Below, one piece after another: positions 1 to 5,694 of a stretch of 7,198 bases of DNA; the stretch's first letter is position 1, and each line of letters opens with the position of its first letter. The DNA is from a virus. Lineage: Duplodnaviria > Heunggongvirae > Uroviricota > Caudoviricetes. The translations under genes were made by a program, and so were the position numbers. Under the pieces are notes generated by a model that saw nothing but the letters and a program-made list of their open reading frames with translations, searched no databases and was not told the DNA's origin. The stretch lies in IMG/VR virus record IMGVR_UViG_2617271072_000001. One strand, given 5' to 3'.

Positions 1-468
<468 letters not shown>

Positions 469-483
<15 letters not shown>

Positions 484-711
484 AAAAACCAGGTTCGTGC
501 TCATCTTTCCTTCCCGTTCTTCCCTGGTAGCAAACCGGTAATACACCGTTCGCCAGACCTTACCTTCGATAACCAGAAGACCTGCCCGTGCCATTTTAGC
601 CGCGGCCTGATTTATGCTGGTTACTGTTGCGCCTGTTAGCGCGGCAACGTCCGGCGCACAGAAGCTATTATGCGTCCCCAGGTAATGAATAATTGCCTCT
701 TTGCCCGTCAT
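469..711 (-). pseudogene. ren: ren (Rex-exclusion resistance), C-terminal coding region replaced by IS sequence
   Basis: The first ~76 residues (MTGKEAIIHYLGTHNSFCAPDVAALTGATV...) match lambda Ren as recalled; the ORF then ends VVVK-stop inside IS-derived sequence, about 20 residues short. Start codon at 711-709 overlaps the P stop (ATGA overlap), as in lambda. Confidence 0.7.
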
Positions 712-1409
712 ACACTTGCTCCTTTCAGTCCGAACTTAGCTTTGATTTCTGCGATCTTCGCCAGAGCCTGTGCACGATTTAGAGGTCTACCGCCCATGAC
801 AGGAAGTTGTTTTACTGGTTCAGGGATCGCCTCACCACGGTTAATTCTCGCAGTCATATGGACAAGCTCATCTGCGGCCTTACGGCGTAATTCCGCATCA
901 GTAAGCGCATTGGCCCGCATGTTCTGATACAGGTTGGTAACCAGCCAGTAGTGCGCGTTTGATTTCCACGGATAAGACTCCGCATCCGGATACAGGCCTC
1001 GCTTCCGGCAATACTCGTAAACCATATCAACCAGCTCGCTGACGTTTGGCAGTCCGGCGATAACGGATGCTTCTTCCCGGCACCATGCAACAAACTGCCC
1101 GGGTGATGGCAGAAATGGTCGATTCTGCCGACGGGCTACGCGCATTCCTGCGTTAACCTGTTCCATTGTGGTGATCCCGTTTTCCCGGAAAGCCAGAACC
1201 CACTGGCGGCGGATTTCGTTCAGTTCGTTCTGGTCACGGTTAGCCAGACTCGCCGGGAAAGTTGCCAGTAACTGGCTGAACACACCGTTGATGATCTGCG
1301 CTACCTGCTGTACCTGTGGCTTTTCGTCGTACTGTTCCGGCATGTTGTTGGCGATCCGACGCATCTGCTCACGGTCAAAGTTAACCATCTGTGCGGCGAT
1401 GTTTTTCAT
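708..1409 (-). CDS. P: Replication protein P (host DnaB helicase loader), lambda type
   Basis: 233-aa ORF, MKNIAAQMVNFDREQMRRIANNMPEQYDEKPQ..., matching lambda P in length and sequence as recalled. ATGA start/stop overlap with O at 1406-1409. Confidence 0.9.
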   Translation of the reverse strand: MKNIAAQMVNFDREQMRRIANNMPEQYDEKPQVQQVAQIINGVFSQLLATFPASLANRDQNELNEIRRQWVLAFRENGITTMEQVNAGMRVARRQNRPFLPSPGQFVAWCREEASVIAGLPNVSELVDMVYEYCRKRGLYPDAESYPWKSNAHYWLVTNLYQNMRANALTDAELRRKAADELVHMTARINRGEAIPEPVKQLPVMGGRPLNRAQALAKIAEIKAKFGLKGASV

Positions 1410-2305
1410 AGATCCACCCCGTAAATCCAGTCTGTGTTTGTCAGGTCGAGTTTTGATTTGCTGGCTGTCACGACTGCCTGTTGCTTGTTACGGTTGATTT
1501 CGAGCTGGGTCCACTTGTCGCGGAGTTTGGCCGGGCTAAGCACGTTACCGGACCAGAAGTTGTCCTGGCATGCCCAGCGGAACAGTACACACATGTCGCG
1601 ATGGTTACGTCCGTCACGTTCACGCATCAGGCGGATATCGTTAGCCCACCCAGCAAAATTCGGTTTTCTGGCTGATGGTGCGATAGTCTTCACCATGTCA
1701 AACATCCACTCTGCGGCGGTCAGGTCTTCTGCTGTCCCCCACTTGCTGCCGCTCTGAATTGCAGCATCCGGTTTAACCACAGAAAGATCGTTTTCTGGCT
1801 GGTCAGAGGATTCGCCAGAATTCTCGGACGAATAATCTTTTCTTTTTTCTTTTGTAATAGTGTCTTTTGTGTCCCCCTGTTTTGAGGGATAGCAATCCCC
1901 CAATTTGAGGGATGTTTTATCCCTCGTTTTAGGGGATTTTCCCTCGTTTTGAGGGATACACCATTCTGAGATGTTTTTATTTGGTCCAAACATGCCGCCT
2001 TGCTGCTTGATAATATTCATTCTGACGAGTTCTAACTTGGCTTCATTGCACCGTTTGACAGGTAACTTTGTAATCTCGCTAAGTTGAGAATCGGTGATTC
2101 TGTCCATTGGTTTATTCCACCCATAGGTTTTACGCAGAATGGCAAGCAGCACTTTAAACTGTCGCTTGGTCAGATCTGCGCCTGAATAAGCCTCAAGCAG
2201 CATATTTGATAGTCTGGCGTAACCATCATCGAGATCTGCCACATTACGCTCCTGTCCGGTAAAGTTACCTCTGCCGAAGTTGAGTATTTTTGCTGTATTT
2301 GTCAT
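1406..2305 (-). CDS. O: Replication initiator protein O, lambda type (299 aa)
   Basis: Protein begins MTNTAKILNFGRGNF... from ATG at 2305-2303, with AGGAG 5 nt upstream on the minus strand. The listed ORF 1406-2350 is an upstream in-frame extension without a ribosome-binding site. The gene contains the ori iterons, as in lambda. Confidence 0.9.
   Translation of the reverse strand: MTNTAKILNFGRGNFTGQERNVADLDDGYARLSNMLLEAYSGADLTKRQFKVLLAILRKTYGWNKPMDRITDSQLSEITKLPVKRCNEAKLELVRMNIIKQQGGMFGPNKNISEWCIPQNEGKSPKTRDKTSLKLGDCYPSKQGDTKDTITKEKRKDYSSENSGESSDQPENDLSVVKPDAAIQSGSKWGTAEDLTAAEWMFDMVKTIAPSARKPNFAGWANDIRLMRERDGRNHRDMCVLFRWACQDNFWSGNVLSPAKLRDKWTQLEINRNKQQAVVTASKSKLDLTNTDWIYGVDL
1871..1957. repeat. 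ori-lambda-type iterons: four ~19-bp direct repeats (O-protein binding sites) inside O, with adjacent AT-rich tract at about 1838-1866
   Basis: Four repeats of the form (t/a)tccc(c/t)c-N-ttt(g/a)ggggat at about 1872-1890, 1895-1913, 1919-1937 and 1939-1957, each an internal inverted repeat. A pyrimidine/AT-rich run ttttcttttttcttttgtaatag follows on the low-coordinate side. Confidence 0.85.
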
Positions 2306-2308
2306 AAT
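2280..2308 (+). promoter_or_regulatory. pO-like promoter for an oop-type antisense RNA
   Basis: TTGAGT (2280-2285), 17-bp spacer, CATAAT (2303-2308) on the plus strand, directed away from O and into the 3' end of c1. Confidence 0.5.
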
Positions 2309-2314
2309 GACTCC

Positions 2315-2382
2315 TGTGGATTGATCCAGTCTTTCTACATCAGGCCTCAAAACTGTTGCAGCAGTCTTGAGGCTTTTCTTTT
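2315..2382 (+). ncRNA. oop: OOP-like short antisense RNA overlapping the 3' end of c1 (cII family)
   Basis: Predicted start about 7 nt downstream of the -10. Intrinsic terminator with stem GCCTCAA (2344-2350) / TTGAGGC (2367-2373), inner pairing ACTG/CAGT, then TTTTCTTTT (2374-2382). The position is equivalent to lambda oop (between cII and O, antisense to the cII 3' end). Confidence 0.45.
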
Positions 2383-2618
2383 GTCAGCACCATGGCTACT
2401 TTCTTTGCTAGCTTTGCTAATTCCTCGTCTTCAACACCCCACTCCAGCACAGCCAGAAGCATGGCCATCTTTGGGATAAAGCTGTCTTTCCATCGCGAAA
2501 TTTGCGATTCATTAATCCCTAATGCATCAGCAACCTTTCGCTGACCACGTACAGCAATTCGATTCAGGATGTTGCTTGTGATTGCATTCGCTTTCTTGCG
2601 AGTACTTGTAAGTTGCAT
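2340..2618 (-). CDS. c1: CII-family transcriptional activator (P22 C1-like), 92 aa
   Basis: MQLTSTRKKANAITSNILNRIAVRGQRKVADALGINESQISRWK... resembles P22 C1 / lambda CII with a helix-turn-helix. ATG at 2618-2616 with AGGAAA 8 nt upstream on the minus strand. The listed 121-aa ORF is an upstream extension that runs across nutR. Confidence 0.8.
   Translation of the reverse strand: MQLTSTRKKANAITSNILNRIAVRGQRKVADALGINESQISRWKDSFIPKMAMLLAVLEWGVEDEELAKLAKKVAMVLTKEKPQDCCNSFEA
2572..2585 (+). promoter_or_regulatory. CII/C1 activator binding site (TTGC-N6-TTGC), -35 region of a pRE-like establishment promoter
   Basis: TTGC (2572-2575), spacer ttgtga, TTGC (2582-2585) on the plus strand, inside the 5' coding region of c1 and pointing through cro (antisense) toward c2, as for lambda pRE. 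Confidence 0.45.
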
Positions 2619-2676
2619 ATGTAAGTATTTCCTTAACAAATAAGAAGTTATACGCACCAACTGATGCGCGTTGTAT

Positions 2677-2720
2677 TCCCGCATTTCGGCGGGAATAAGG
2701 ACCATGACTGTTAAAGAGCA
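2677..2720 (-). promoter_or_regulatory. nutR: boxA (TGCTCTTTAA) plus boxB hairpin
   Basis: On the minus strand, boxA TGCTCTTTAA (plus-strand coordinates 2711-2720) is followed after 16 nt by a hairpin UCCCGC-CGAAAU-GCGGGA (2677-2694). The hairpin is identical to the one in nutL. Confidence 0.6.
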
Positions 2721-2726
2721 ATTTGC

Positions 2727-2912
2727 TTATGCCGCTTTGCGATAAGCACTTTCTTGATACTTCAGGGCGCCAGCTGTAACGACTTCCAGTCGATAGGCGT
2801 CTTTCTCTGGGATGACTTCCTTCCACTGAGAGACTGCTGCATCGCTAATGCCTAACGCTTTAGCTACCGCACGCTGGGTTCCGAAGTGGTCGATAACATC
2901 TTTCTTGTACAT
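2727..2912 (-). CDS. cro: Cro repressor, P22 type (61 aa)
   Basis: MYKKDVIDHFGTQRAVAKALGISDAAVSQWKEVIPEKDAYRLEVVTAGALKYQESAYRKAA, near-identical to P22 Cro as recalled. GGAG 10 nt upstream of the ATG on the minus strand. Confidence 0.85.
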   Translation of the reverse strand: MYKKDVIDHFGTQRAVAKALGISDAAVSQWKEVIPEKDAYRLEVVTAGALKYQESAYRKAA

Positions 2913-2926
2913 AGACTCGCTCCGAA

Positions 2927-2992
2927 ATTAAAGAACACTTAAATTATCTATCAAAGGAATCTTAAGTCAAGTTTATTTAAGATGTCTTAACT
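2927..2992. promoter_or_regulatory. OR operator cluster with divergent pR (to cro) and pRM (to c2)
   Basis: Two 18-bp sites fit the P22 C2 operator pattern ANTNAAG-N4-CTTNANT: ATTAAAGAACACTTAAAT (2927-2944) and ATTTAAGATGTCTTAACT (2975-2992), with a likely third between them. The c2 ATG follows immediately, so the pRM transcript is probably leaderless. Confidence 0.6.
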
Positions 2993-3643
2993 ATGAATAC
3001 ACAACTGATGGGTGAGCGTATTCGCGCTCGCAGAAAAGAACTTAAGATTAGGCAGGCTGCCCTTGGCAAGATGGTTGGCGTGTCTAATGTTGCTATTTCC
3101 CAATGGGAGCGTTCTGAAACTGAGCCCAATGGCGAAAACCTATTGGCTTTAGCCAAGGCTTTACAGTGCTCCCCTGATTACTTGTTGAAAGGAGAAGATA
3201 GTCTTTCAAACATTGCCTATCACAGCAGGCATGATCCAAGAGGTTCGTATCCTCTAATTAGTTGGGTAAGCGCAGGATGTTGGATGGAAGCTGTAGAGCC
3301 ATATCATAAGCGTGCAATAGATAACTGGTACGATACAACCGTAGATTGTTCAGAAGATTCGTTTTGGCTGGACGTAAAGGGTGATTCGATGACGGCTCCA
3401 GCCGGTCTTAGCATCCCGGAAGGGATGATAATACTAGTCGATCCTGAAGTAGAACCTCGTAATGGGAAGCTGGTAGTGGCAAAGCTCGAAGGAGAAAACG
3501 AGGCAACTTTCAAGAAGTTAGTTATTGATGCTGGCAGAAGGTTTCTAAAACCACTTAACCCACAATATCCGATGATTGAGATCAACGGGAACTGCAAAAT
3601 CATCGGTGTAGTTGTCGATGCAAAAATAGCAAACCTTCCATAA
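2993..3643 (+). CDS. c2: C2 repressor, P22 type (216 aa): N-terminal helix-turn-helix, C-terminal LexA-like S24 autopeptidase domain
   Basis: MNTQLMGERIRARRKELKIRQAALGKMVGVSNVAISQWERSE... matches P22 C2 as recalled. Ala-Gly cleavage site in VSAGCW; catalytic Ser in GDSM and Lys in the GKLVVAKL region. Confidence 0.9.
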   Translation: MNTQLMGERIRARRKELKIRQAALGKMVGVSNVAISQWERSETEPNGENLLALAKALQCSPDYLLKGEDSLSNIAYHSRHDPRGSYPLISWVSAGCWMEAVEPYHKRAIDNWYDTTVDCSEDSFWLDVKGDSMTAPAGLSIPEGMIILVDPEVEPRNGKLVVAKLEGENEATFKKLVIDAGRRFLKPLNPQYPMIEINGNCKIIGVVVDAKIANLP

Positions 3644-3665
3644 GGGGCATTCGCCCCTTTTTTTC
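3644..3665 (+). terminator. Intrinsic terminator directly after c2
   Basis: GGGGC (3644-3648), loop ATTC, GCCCC (3653-3657), followed by a run of 7 T. Confidence 0.6.
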
Positions 3666-3707
3666 TTTCCTTTAAAAATCAAAGCAAAACTTAAGCTTCG
3701 CAACAAA

Positions 3708-3762
3708 AATTTAAGTTTTCTTCAAAAACACTCTTGACCAATAGTTAAAGAAATCTTAAATT
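3708..3762 (+). promoter_or_regulatory. OL operators and pL promoter
   Basis: Operator-like site ATTTAAGTTTTCTTCAAA (3708-3725) and a second overlapping the promoter. TTGACC (3734-3739), 17-bp spacer, TAAATT (3757-3762), reading toward the N-like gene. Confidence 0.5.
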
Positions 3763-3807
3763 TAAGTCATCGGCAGGACGCTGGTAGCCAAACGGAACAG
3801 ATTGGCA

Positions 3808-3849
3808 GGCTCTTTAACATTGATGGGATTGTCCCGCCGAAATGCGGGA
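3808..3849 (+). promoter_or_regulatory. nutL: boxA (GGCTCTTTAAC) plus boxB hairpin
   Basis: boxA-like GCTCTTTA at 3809-3816, then after 14 nt a hairpin UCCCGC (3832-3837) / loop CGAAAU / GCGGGA (3844-3849), identical to the nutR hairpin. Confidence 0.6.
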
Positions 3850-3956
3850 ACCAAAGAGTAGTTGGCTTTGGGGTGACGTGAAGTGCAGCTGCACGACGGC
3901 AACCGGAAGATAAGCACCCGGCGCGTCACCGCCAAAGTCAATCATCGGAGGTCAAC

Positions 3957-4229
3957 ATGGCAGTAGTCATTACATATCTGGCTGACGATAACGCCAGAAA
4001 TCGCCGCAGAGCACGCAGACAGGCTCAACGTGAGCAGGCAATGCAAGAACAGCGACTGGCGCGAAAAATTGCGCTAAAGCTCTCTGGTTGCGTCAGAGCA
4101 GACAAAGCAGCATCACTCGGAAGCCTTCGCTGCAAGAAGGCAGATGAATGCAGTGGAAGTATTTGCCTGCCAAACGTAGCCATTTACGCGGCAGGCTACC
4201 GGAAATCAAAACAACTGACGGCGAGATGA
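3957..4229 (+). CDS. N-like transcription antiterminator (P22 gp24 / lambda N family), 90 aa
   Basis: N-terminal arginine-rich motif NARNRRRARRQAQREQ. The C-terminus ...LPNVAIYAAGYRKSKQLTAR resembles the P22 gp24 C-terminus as recalled. First gene downstream of pL and nutL; GGAGG 6 nt upstream of the ATG. Confidence 0.7.
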   Translation: MAVVITYLADDNARNRRRARRQAQREQAMQEQRLARKIALKLSGCVRADKAASLGSLRCKKADECSGSICLPNVAIYAAGYRKSKQLTAR

Positions 4230-4245
4230 TAAATTAATTTGCTAA

Positions 4246-4827
4246 TTACTTGTTTTTGCCATGCTTATCCTGAGCGATAAGTTCATCCATAAGACTGTCT
4301 TTCTTCCCAGCAAACCTAATGTAGCACTCATTTCTATAGCGTTCCGGGATAACAAAACGGTCGATTTCAGGATATCCAGTAGCAGAAGGTACCCGAATAA
4401 GAAGCCCTTTTTCGAGCAATGAGATTGCTTCAGGGCTTCCCTTTTCTGTCTTTAGCTGGTTATTAGCGGCTACAGCGAATGCCAAATACGCTCTTTCTCC
4501 AAGAGTTAACGAATCAAACAAATCTTGCACGTATTTCTCTTCTTTAGATTTGCGCTTCTGAGCAGCGAATATCTCAATTCTTTCAGTCACAGCGTGATAA
4601 GCGGAATTAACAACGCCGTTAAGCACATAGCTAACGCAAAACAACAGGATGTAATACATCCAGTAATGAGGAAGGATTTCTGGATTATGCAGGTTTATCC
4701 ATTCTTTTACGCTTACAGGCATAACAATAATCAATATGATTAGGATGATTAGCATATGAATCAACTGTTTAAGTGTCATTCCTTGCAGGAAAAAATGCAT
4801 TAGTTCCTGCCACCATGAGTTGTTCAT
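4246..4827 (-). CDS. sieB: Superinfection exclusion protein SieB-like membrane protein (193 aa)
   Basis: MNNSWWQELMHFFLQGMTLKQLIHMLIILIILIIVMPV... with two hydrophobic segments, lying between the N-like gene and ea10. Matches lambda/P22 SieB as recalled. Orientation is taken from the ORF itself. Confidence 0.65.
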   Translation of the reverse strand: MNNSWWQELMHFFLQGMTLKQLIHMLIILIILIIVMPVSVKEWINLHNPEILPHYWMYYILLFCVSYVLNGVVNSAYHAVTERIEIFAAQKRKSKEEKYVQDLFDSLTLGERAYLAFAVAANNQLKTEKGSPEAISLLEKGLLIRVPSATGYPEIDRFVIPERYRNECYIRFAGKKDSLMDELIAQDKHGKNK

Positions 4828-5041
4828 CGGCGTTTCTCTTTTGCTCTCTGTAGGGGTGAATAGAGTTTATCCGATTTCTCGCTGTAGGGGTACACGAGAA
4901 CCACCGAGCCTGATGTGGTTAAAAGACAGGCATACTAATAAACACTGCACTGTGTATTCATTCCAACGAGTGAATACACTGAGCAATGTCGCTCGTAACT
5001 AAACAGGAGCCGACTTGTTCTGATTATTGGAAATCTTCTTT

Positions 5042-5067
5042 GCCCTCCAATGTGAGGGCGATTTTTT
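5042..5067 (+). terminator. Intrinsic terminator upstream of ea10
   Basis: GCCCTC (5042-5047), loop CAATGT, GAGGGC (5054-5059), then ATTTTTT. No U-run on the opposite strand, so plus-strand specific. Confidence 0.5.
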
Positions 5068-5087
5068 ATCTGTGAGGATATGAATAG

Positions 5088-5504: not shown

Positions 5505-5529
5505 GTTATGTATAAATAAGGAGCACACC

Positions 5530-5694
5530 ATGCAATATGCCATTGCAGGGTGGCCTGTTGCTGGCTGCCCTTCCGAATCTTTACTTGAACGAATCACCCG
5601 TAAATTACGTGACGGATGGAAACGCCTTATCGACATACTTAATCAGCCAGGAGTCCCAAAAAATGGATCAAACACTTATGGCTATCCAGACTAA
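5530..5694 (+). CDS. cIII: CIII (inhibitor of FtsH, stabilises CII), 54 aa
   Basis: [54 protein letters not shown] matches lambda CIII as recalled. AAGGAG 7 nt upstream. Confidence 0.85.
   Translation: MQYAIAGWPVAGCPSESLLERITRKLRDGWKRLIDILNQPGVPKNGSNTYGYPD

Follow-up and report, generated by a model that had tools for sequence, protein, structure and literature searches.

The window analysed here, that is, the whole stretch of 7,198 nucleotides from IMG/VR virus record IMGVR_UViG_2617271072_000001, carries two copies of an 18-nt hairpin that are very probably the boxB elements of the nutL and nutR sites of a lambdoid prophage in the E. coli chromosome, accompanied by the N antiterminator of that prophage. 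Judged by their sequences, the nut sites and the arginine-rich motif (ARM) of N are of a known, annotated and widespread class, the HK620 type, which was first annotated in coliphage HK620. Among intact related loci, the ARM and the type of boxB are inherited together.

The nut sites in the early region of the prophage

The map of the early region was built from open reading frames, Pfam matches and the RefSeq annotation of the identical E. coli chromosome segment, and gives the gene order ren'-P-O-cII-nutR-cro-c2-pL-nutL-N-sieB-ea10-cIII-kil-gam-bet-exo. The individual features are as follows.

469-711, minus strand: ren', 80-aa product
708-1409, minus strand: P
1406-2350, minus strand: O
2343-2621, minus strand: cII, first gene 3' of nutR and tR1; Pfam Phage_CII, 150 bits
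2677-2694, minus strand: nutR boxB on the pR transcript, the same 18 nt as in nutL; exact match, fold, identical to the annotated HK620 nutR
2709-2719, minus strand: nutR boxA GCUCUUUAACA, between the cro stop and boxB; exact match and region alignment
2727-2912, minus strand: P22-type cro, first gene of the pR operon, followed by nutR; Pfam P22_Cro, 96 bits
2943-2970, minus strand: pR-like promoter TTGACT-16-GATAAT upstream of cro; promoter scan
2993-3643, plus strand: P22 C2-type repressor gene (c2); Pfam HTH_3 and Peptidase_S24
3734-3762, plus strand: pL-like promoter TTGACC-17-TAAATT, about 45 nt 5' of the nutL boxA; position of the pL annotated in HK620
3809-3819, plus strand: nutL boxA GCUCUUUAACA, 12 nt 5' of boxB; the same boxA is found in phage 21
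3832-3849, plus strand: nutL boxB UCCCGC-CGAAAU-GCGGGA on the pL transcript; exact match, fold, identical to the annotated HK620 nutL
3861-3942, plus strand: N-leader hairpin, ~82 nt, separating nutL from the ribosome-binding site of N; fold
3957-4229, plus strand: N antiterminator gene, 90 aa; Pfam N_peptide PF25694, PHROG 271
3990-4037, plus strand: codons of the ARM NARNRRRARRQAQREQ, residues 12-27 of N
4246-4827, minus strand: sieB, P22-type
5040-5071, plus strand: intrinsic-terminator-like hairpin with T-run in the pL operon, between sieB and ea10; terminator scan

The 18-mer TCCCGCCGAAATGCGGGA occurs exactly twice in the window, once on each strand, while none of 200 dinucleotide shuffles gave a match to it (0/200). 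Likewise, there are exactly two copies of the boxA GCTCTTTAACA, each located 5' of a hairpin and on the same strand as that hairpin. The spacer between boxA and boxB is 12 nt in nutL and 14 nt in nutR, and the two elements thus conform to the consensus (C)GCUCUU(U)A at 8-15 nt 5' of boxB. When the two regions are aligned with each other, boxA and the hairpin are the only common blocks. The preliminary description had placed the same hairpin behind a boxA at both sites, and its coordinates were found to be exact.

The fold of each hairpin has 6 bp in the stem and CGAAAU in the loop. In nutR, the paired region reaches 9 bp (2674-2697), with a folding energy of -13.7 kcal/mol (z = -5.2), and the nutL hairpin has -10.7 kcal/mol (z = -2.2). 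Both are thus short stem-loops of 6-9 bp with an A-rich loop and without a T-run on the 3' side, and each lies on the strand that is transcribed, near the start of one of the two divergent operons, pL or pR. Their positions are those of the nut sites of lambda, P22 and phage 21, nutL lying between pL and N and nutR between cro and cII. The candidate cognate boxB RNA for the N of the window is GUCCCGCCGAAAUGCGGGAAC. One reading of its loop is a GAAA tetraloop with a flanking C.U mismatch, and a GNRA fold is possible for it.

Downstream of nutR, the expression of cII should depend on N. In HK620, the corresponding position carries an annotated terminator tR1; the element is not recognisable from the sequence because, by analogy, it would be Rho-dependent. 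On the other side, the hairpin at 5040-5071 is a likely tL-like target of N-dependent read-through. Between the two nut sites, c2, cro and the operators constitute the exchangeable immunity cassette.

Further RNA structures were found in the pL transcript. In the N-leader hairpin, 9 of the 22 consensus pairs stay paired through two-sided changes among six relatives including phage 21. It resembles the N-leader stem of lambda, which is processed by RNase III and takes part in the control of N translation. The lambda cIII thermoregulator RNA (RF01804) is present at 5517-5575 on the plus strand, overlapping the cIII start, with 88.5 bits (gathering score 50); it is the only Rfam match within the window, and Rfam has no nut-site family. 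At the other end of the map (1-480 in the window, 661-2212 in locus L299), an IS3-family element sits in ren, and the window begins inside its transposase (37-414, plus strand). The gene is thereby split into the 80-aa product and a leftover fragment past the insertion sequence.

Relation to HK620, phage 21, P22 and lambda

The first gene of the pL operon encodes a small basic protein with an ARM at its N-terminus, and its assignment as an N protein, already made in the preliminary description, is confirmed by the matches to PF25694 (57.5 bits, cutoff 27.9) and to PHROG 271, 'anti-termination protein N-like' (9e-34). An identical N (100%) is encoded by 19 IMG/VR contigs. The protein is a mosaic, in which residues 1-32 carry the HK620-type ARM, residues 33-64 are phage-21-like and residues 65-90 are P22 gp24-like. 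In lambda N, residues 1-22 bind boxB, residues 34-47 bind NusA and residues 73-107 contact the polymerase. By analogy, the three blocks of the mosaic may correspond to the boxB-binding, NusA-binding and RNA-polymerase-binding regions. A sequence search of the PDB returned no solved structure related to the N of the window.

The closest match to the whole system is that of HK620 (AF335538 / NC_002730). Its N is identical to that of the window in 87 of 90 residues (96.7%), the three differing residues all being outside the ARM, and both 18-nt hairpins and both boxA elements are those of the window. The HK620 features 'nutL; putative N-utilization leftward' and 'nutR', annotated since 2001, run exactly from boxA to the hairpin and occupy the same positions as in the window, between pL and N and between cro and cII, respectively. 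The immunity cassettes differ, HK620 having a 434/L-like cI with a lambda-like cro and the window a P22-type c2 and cro, and the homology between the two starts immediately 3' of pL on one side and of cro on the other. The window thus has the two marks of the HK620 type, namely the ARM ..DDNARNRRRARRQAQREQ.. and the boxB (U)CCCGC-CGAAAU-GCGGG(A) at both nut sites. The suggestion that the pair is new is therefore refuted by an exact known match at both sites, while the functional reading of the elements is left intact.

The class is common. With the pL-nutL-N segment as query, megablast matched 158 phage records, and the same type of N and nut sites is found in HK620, HK140, HK630, CUS-3, JEP4, N7, ECP1 and many Stx1a-converting phages. 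The segment from nutL to the ARM is present in 526 of 5426 complete E. coli genomes (~10%). A pattern scan of genome contigs, in a collection that holds one genome per species, returned 3 contigs only, two of which are short and sit in MAG bins labelled Bacillales and Segatella, where they are probably mis-binned. The reverse scan of viral contigs with a 14-mer gave many single chance matches, the pattern being unspecific.

The same or nearly the same N (window, H71 and H81-H83) is called 'hypothetical protein' in many E. coli genomes by RefSeq/PGAP and 'transcriptional antitermination N peptide' in others. The former name could be improved.

Outside the class, the comparison of the leaders and proteins indicates that the system is a sister of that of phage 21, which, and not P22, is its closest relative. 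Homology between the pL leaders of phage 21 and the window extends over the whole stretch between the transcription start and the start codon of N, with the approximately 20 nt of boxB as the exception, and the boxA elements are identical. Residues 33-64 of the two N proteins are almost the same, whereas the first 32 codons differ and the C-terminus is phage-21-type in one and gp24-like in the other. The phage 21 ARM, GTAKSRYKARRAELIAERR, has the same length and register as that of the window and a common core A-x-x-R-x-x-ARR (A-[KR]-[SN]-R-x-x-A-R-R), but most of its residues are unlike those of the window. Similarly, the boxBs in the annotated phage 21 record, CUCAAC-CUAACC-GUUGAG and UCACCU-CUAACC-GGGUGA, share with the window the architecture of a 6-bp stem and a 6-nt loop, but the letters differ. 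The window accordingly lacks the combination of GTAKSRYKARRAELIAERR with a CUAACC-loop boxB that marks the phage 21 type.

The likeness to P22 is more limited. In the preliminary description, boxA had been called P22-like and the C-terminus of N gp24-like, and both statements are correct in part. For boxA, GCTCTTTAAC is common to the window and P22 nutL, while the complete element is that of phage 21. For N, the likeness to gp24 is confined to the C-terminal ~26 residues (~40 when aligned by BLAST), while residues 33-64 are phage-21-like. Residues 61-100 of gp24 are ~63% identical to residues 50-90 of the window N, and the alignment ends in LP.VA.YAAG.RKSKQ.TAR, that is, YAAG[YH]RKSKQ[LI]TAR, but over the full length the identity falls to 36%. 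Other P22-type genes of the window are cro, c2 and sieB. The P22 ARM, GNAKTRRHERRRKLAIERDT, and boxB, GCGCU-GACAA-AGCGC, with a 5-nt loop and other stems, are unlike those of the window, which carries neither this ARM nor a GACAA-loop boxB.

The lambda system has the same logic and the same map positions, and the genes O, P, ren, ea10, cIII, kil, gam, bet and exo of the window are lambda-like. In the PDB search, lambda N (ARM MDAQTRRRERRAEKQAQWKAAN) has no detectable sequence similarity to the N of the window, and the boxA elements are CGCUCUUA in lambda and GCUCUUUAACA in the window. The preliminary description was right that the hairpin differs from the lambda boxB, GCCCU-GAARA-AGGGC, which has another stem and a 5-nt loop instead of 6 nt, although the window loop holds a GAAA core like the GNRA-like pentaloop of lambda. 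The lambda and P22 boxB sequences used in that comparison agree with the lambda-type nutL of phage mEp213, GCCCTGAAGAAGGGC, and with the nutL in the P22 record, GCGCTGACAAAGCGC. The N of H-19B, a subject of work by the Sen laboratory, was also considered as a possible member of the same class and was rejected, its ARM being RSRRRER (PMC3526286).

Co-inheritance of the arginine-rich motif and boxB

For this comparison, one set of loci was fetched per N architecture and combined with 160 IMG/VR loci. Both nut sites carry HK620-type boxB in every intact related locus with the HK620-type ARM (102 of 102), and phage-21 boxB in every one with the phage-21 ARM (68 of 68). As the loci are close relatives, the counts do not represent independent events, and the independent support is a handful of recombinant architectures. 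No mixed combination of ARM and boxB was found among the 170 intact loci.

The recombinant architectures are the following. In a protein search, the ARM TYLADDNARNRRRARRQAQREQ was nearly invariant across 120 homologues with differing C-terminal modules. It is joined to at least three of these, namely the window/HK620 type (90 aa), the phage-21 type (99-101 aa) and a P22-like body in Enterobacter (86 aa). The HK620-type boxB is kept when the same ARM sits on a phage-21 C-terminus (L084-086) or on the P22-like C-terminus of Enterobacter (L083), and CCCGC-CGAAAU-GCGGG is found at nutL and nutR in every one of the fetched architecture loci with this ARM. The phage-21 ARM (GTAKSRYKARR...) is also found on the window-type C-terminus (proteins P0051, P0060 and P0013), and in such loci (L087-L090) boxB is that of phage 21. 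Between identical boxBs, the relatives hold at least 10 different immunity cassettes. With a freely recombining cassette between the sites, the match of nutR to N and nutL is therefore maintained across it.

Within the class, the boxB loop is invariant in all loci. Covariation in the stem comes down to a single nutR variant, CUCCCAC-CGAAAU-GUCGGAG, seen in L091 and L097, in which the second pair has changed from G-C to A-U and a C.C mismatch is also present.

Seven loci with an HK620-type ARM lack a nut site, and all of them can be accounted for. The upstream region is replaced in L003, L047 and L072 reach the contig end, L008 and L021 have deletions, and L059 and L095 are one phage, mEp213 (NC_019720), in which this N is a second copy. 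In the two IMG/VR loci L008 and L021, the deletion runs from inside cro straight into nin-region or Q-region sequence, so that nutR, cII, O and P are gone while nutL and N are kept; these are probably defective prophages.

The pL operon of mEp213 has two N genes. The first (2378-2710) has a lambda ARM and a lambda-type nutL at position 2080 of L095, and the second, of HK620 type (3863-4135), lies ~1.2 kb downstream of it. In front of the second gene, its boxB is reduced to the 3' half (CCGAAATGCGGGAACTGAG), apparently the scar of a recombination event inside the hairpin, and no HK620-type nut site was found in the mEp213 locus. To judge from this arrangement, the second N looks like an orphan.

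The strict co-occurrence across mosaic relatives, 102/102 against 68/68, supports the earlier suggestion that the HK620-type ARM and boxB form a distinct specificity pair. An alternative is that the nut/N system has no separate specificity, the N of the window also working on the boxB of phage 21, P22 or lambda and the sequence difference being drift. There are arguments for this, since the ARM and its phage 21 counterpart have a homologous core, A[KR][SN]R[YR][KR]ARR, and the boxBs of the window and of phage 21 both have a ~6-bp stem and a 6-nt loop flanked by pyrimidines. In addition, the N protein of P22 partially recognises the boxB of lambda. However, the C-terminal half of N and the immunity cassette are frequently swapped by recombination, and still the number of mixed ARM/boxB loci is zero. 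Moreover, mEp213, with its HK620-type N behind a truncated boxB, relies on the lambda-ARM N and the lambda nutL. We therefore regard a shared specificity as unlikely, although it deserves to be taken seriously.

Two other explanations concern the hairpins themselves and are both highly improbable. If the hairpins were intrinsic terminators or attenuators at the start of the early operons instead of N-binding sites, this would fit their GC-rich stems and early positions in both transcripts, but there is no T-run 3' of either of them (ACCAAAGAG, AUACAACGC), the terminator scan did not call them, and the model would not explain why boxA is invariant and its distance fixed, or why the hairpin and the ARM are inherited together. 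The absence of the T-run and the covariation with the ARM effectively exclude this option. Similarly, the stem is a perfect 6-bp palindrome and could in principle be bound as DNA by a dimeric protein, for instance as an operator or a recombination site, but the asymmetric loop reads CGAAAU along the direction of transcription at both sites, on opposite DNA strands, the operators lie elsewhere according to the HK620 annotation, and the element covaries with an RNA-binding motif and not with the freely exchanged repressor and cro; the strand-specific orientation of the loop and the covariation with the ARM leave practically no room for it.

Proposed mechanism and significance of the pair

We now return to the reading of the two elements as nut sites. 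By analogy with lambda, P22 and phage 21, we infer that the N of the window binds boxB and acts together with the Nus factors. The pL and pR transcripts would each bear boxA, which would load NusB and S10, followed by the boxB hairpin. The arginine-rich helix at the N-terminus of N would bind boxB, and the remainder of the protein would engage NusA and RNA polymerase. On the pR side, the modified polymerase would pass tR1, by analogy with the HK620 annotation, and continue into cII, O and P. On the pL side it would similarly pass the terminators of the operon, such as that at 5040-5071, and reach ea10, cIII, kil, gam, bet and exo.

The stronger proposal is that the HK620-type pair is orthogonal to the other N/boxB pairs and represents a previously uncharacterised peptide-RNA solution, in which a GAAA tetraloop on a C.U mismatch in the 6-nt loop would be read by an ARM of the phage-21 lineage. 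We give this proposal about an even chance. If it is true, the pair would add one N-peptide/boxB tethering pair to those of lambda, P22 and phage 21, and the relatives would provide a natural series for how ARM/hairpin specificity switches within a conserved leader.

In a full-text literature search of incomplete coverage, we found no paper testing the binding or orthogonality of an HK620-type N/boxB. The epsilon34 genome paper infers a 'novel BoxB specificity' from divergent N termini, which is routine in the field (PMC2629481), and in the phage L paper identical nut boxBs are taken as evidence of shared specificity (PMC8022706). The reasoning from ARM and boxB sequences is therefore standard.

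As a discovery, the nut sites of the window carry little weight, being common regulatory sites of a textbook kind that are already annotated in a sequenced phage. A modest practical point is the clean natural domain swap, which marks the ARM/boxB pair as a good candidate for an extra orthogonal RNA-tethering tag. The pair is also suited to the study of how ARM/RNA specificity evolves relative to phage 21.

Finally, two minor observations concern the leader directly 3' of the nutL boxB. In the minimum free energy fold, the boxA core CUCUUU (3811-3816, plus strand) can pair with AAAGAG (3853-3858), which follows boxB directly, and boxB is then placed inside a longer helix. The divergent loci L083, L091 and L092 also have the AAAGAG. 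It is not present at nutR, and in 12 loci with an insertion after the nutL boxB it is moved ~250 nt away. This ~250-nt insertion, seen in about a dozen relatives, sits exactly at the junction of the nutL boxB with the conserved leader, the sequence reading GGGAAC, then TGAGTTTAACC...GAGTGTGAGT, then CAAAGAG. It has no match in Rfam at the gathering threshold. Examples are found upstream of N in L047, L072 and L059, and at about 2590-2850 in HK140 (L002), where a 41-aa hypothetical open reading frame is annotated within it.
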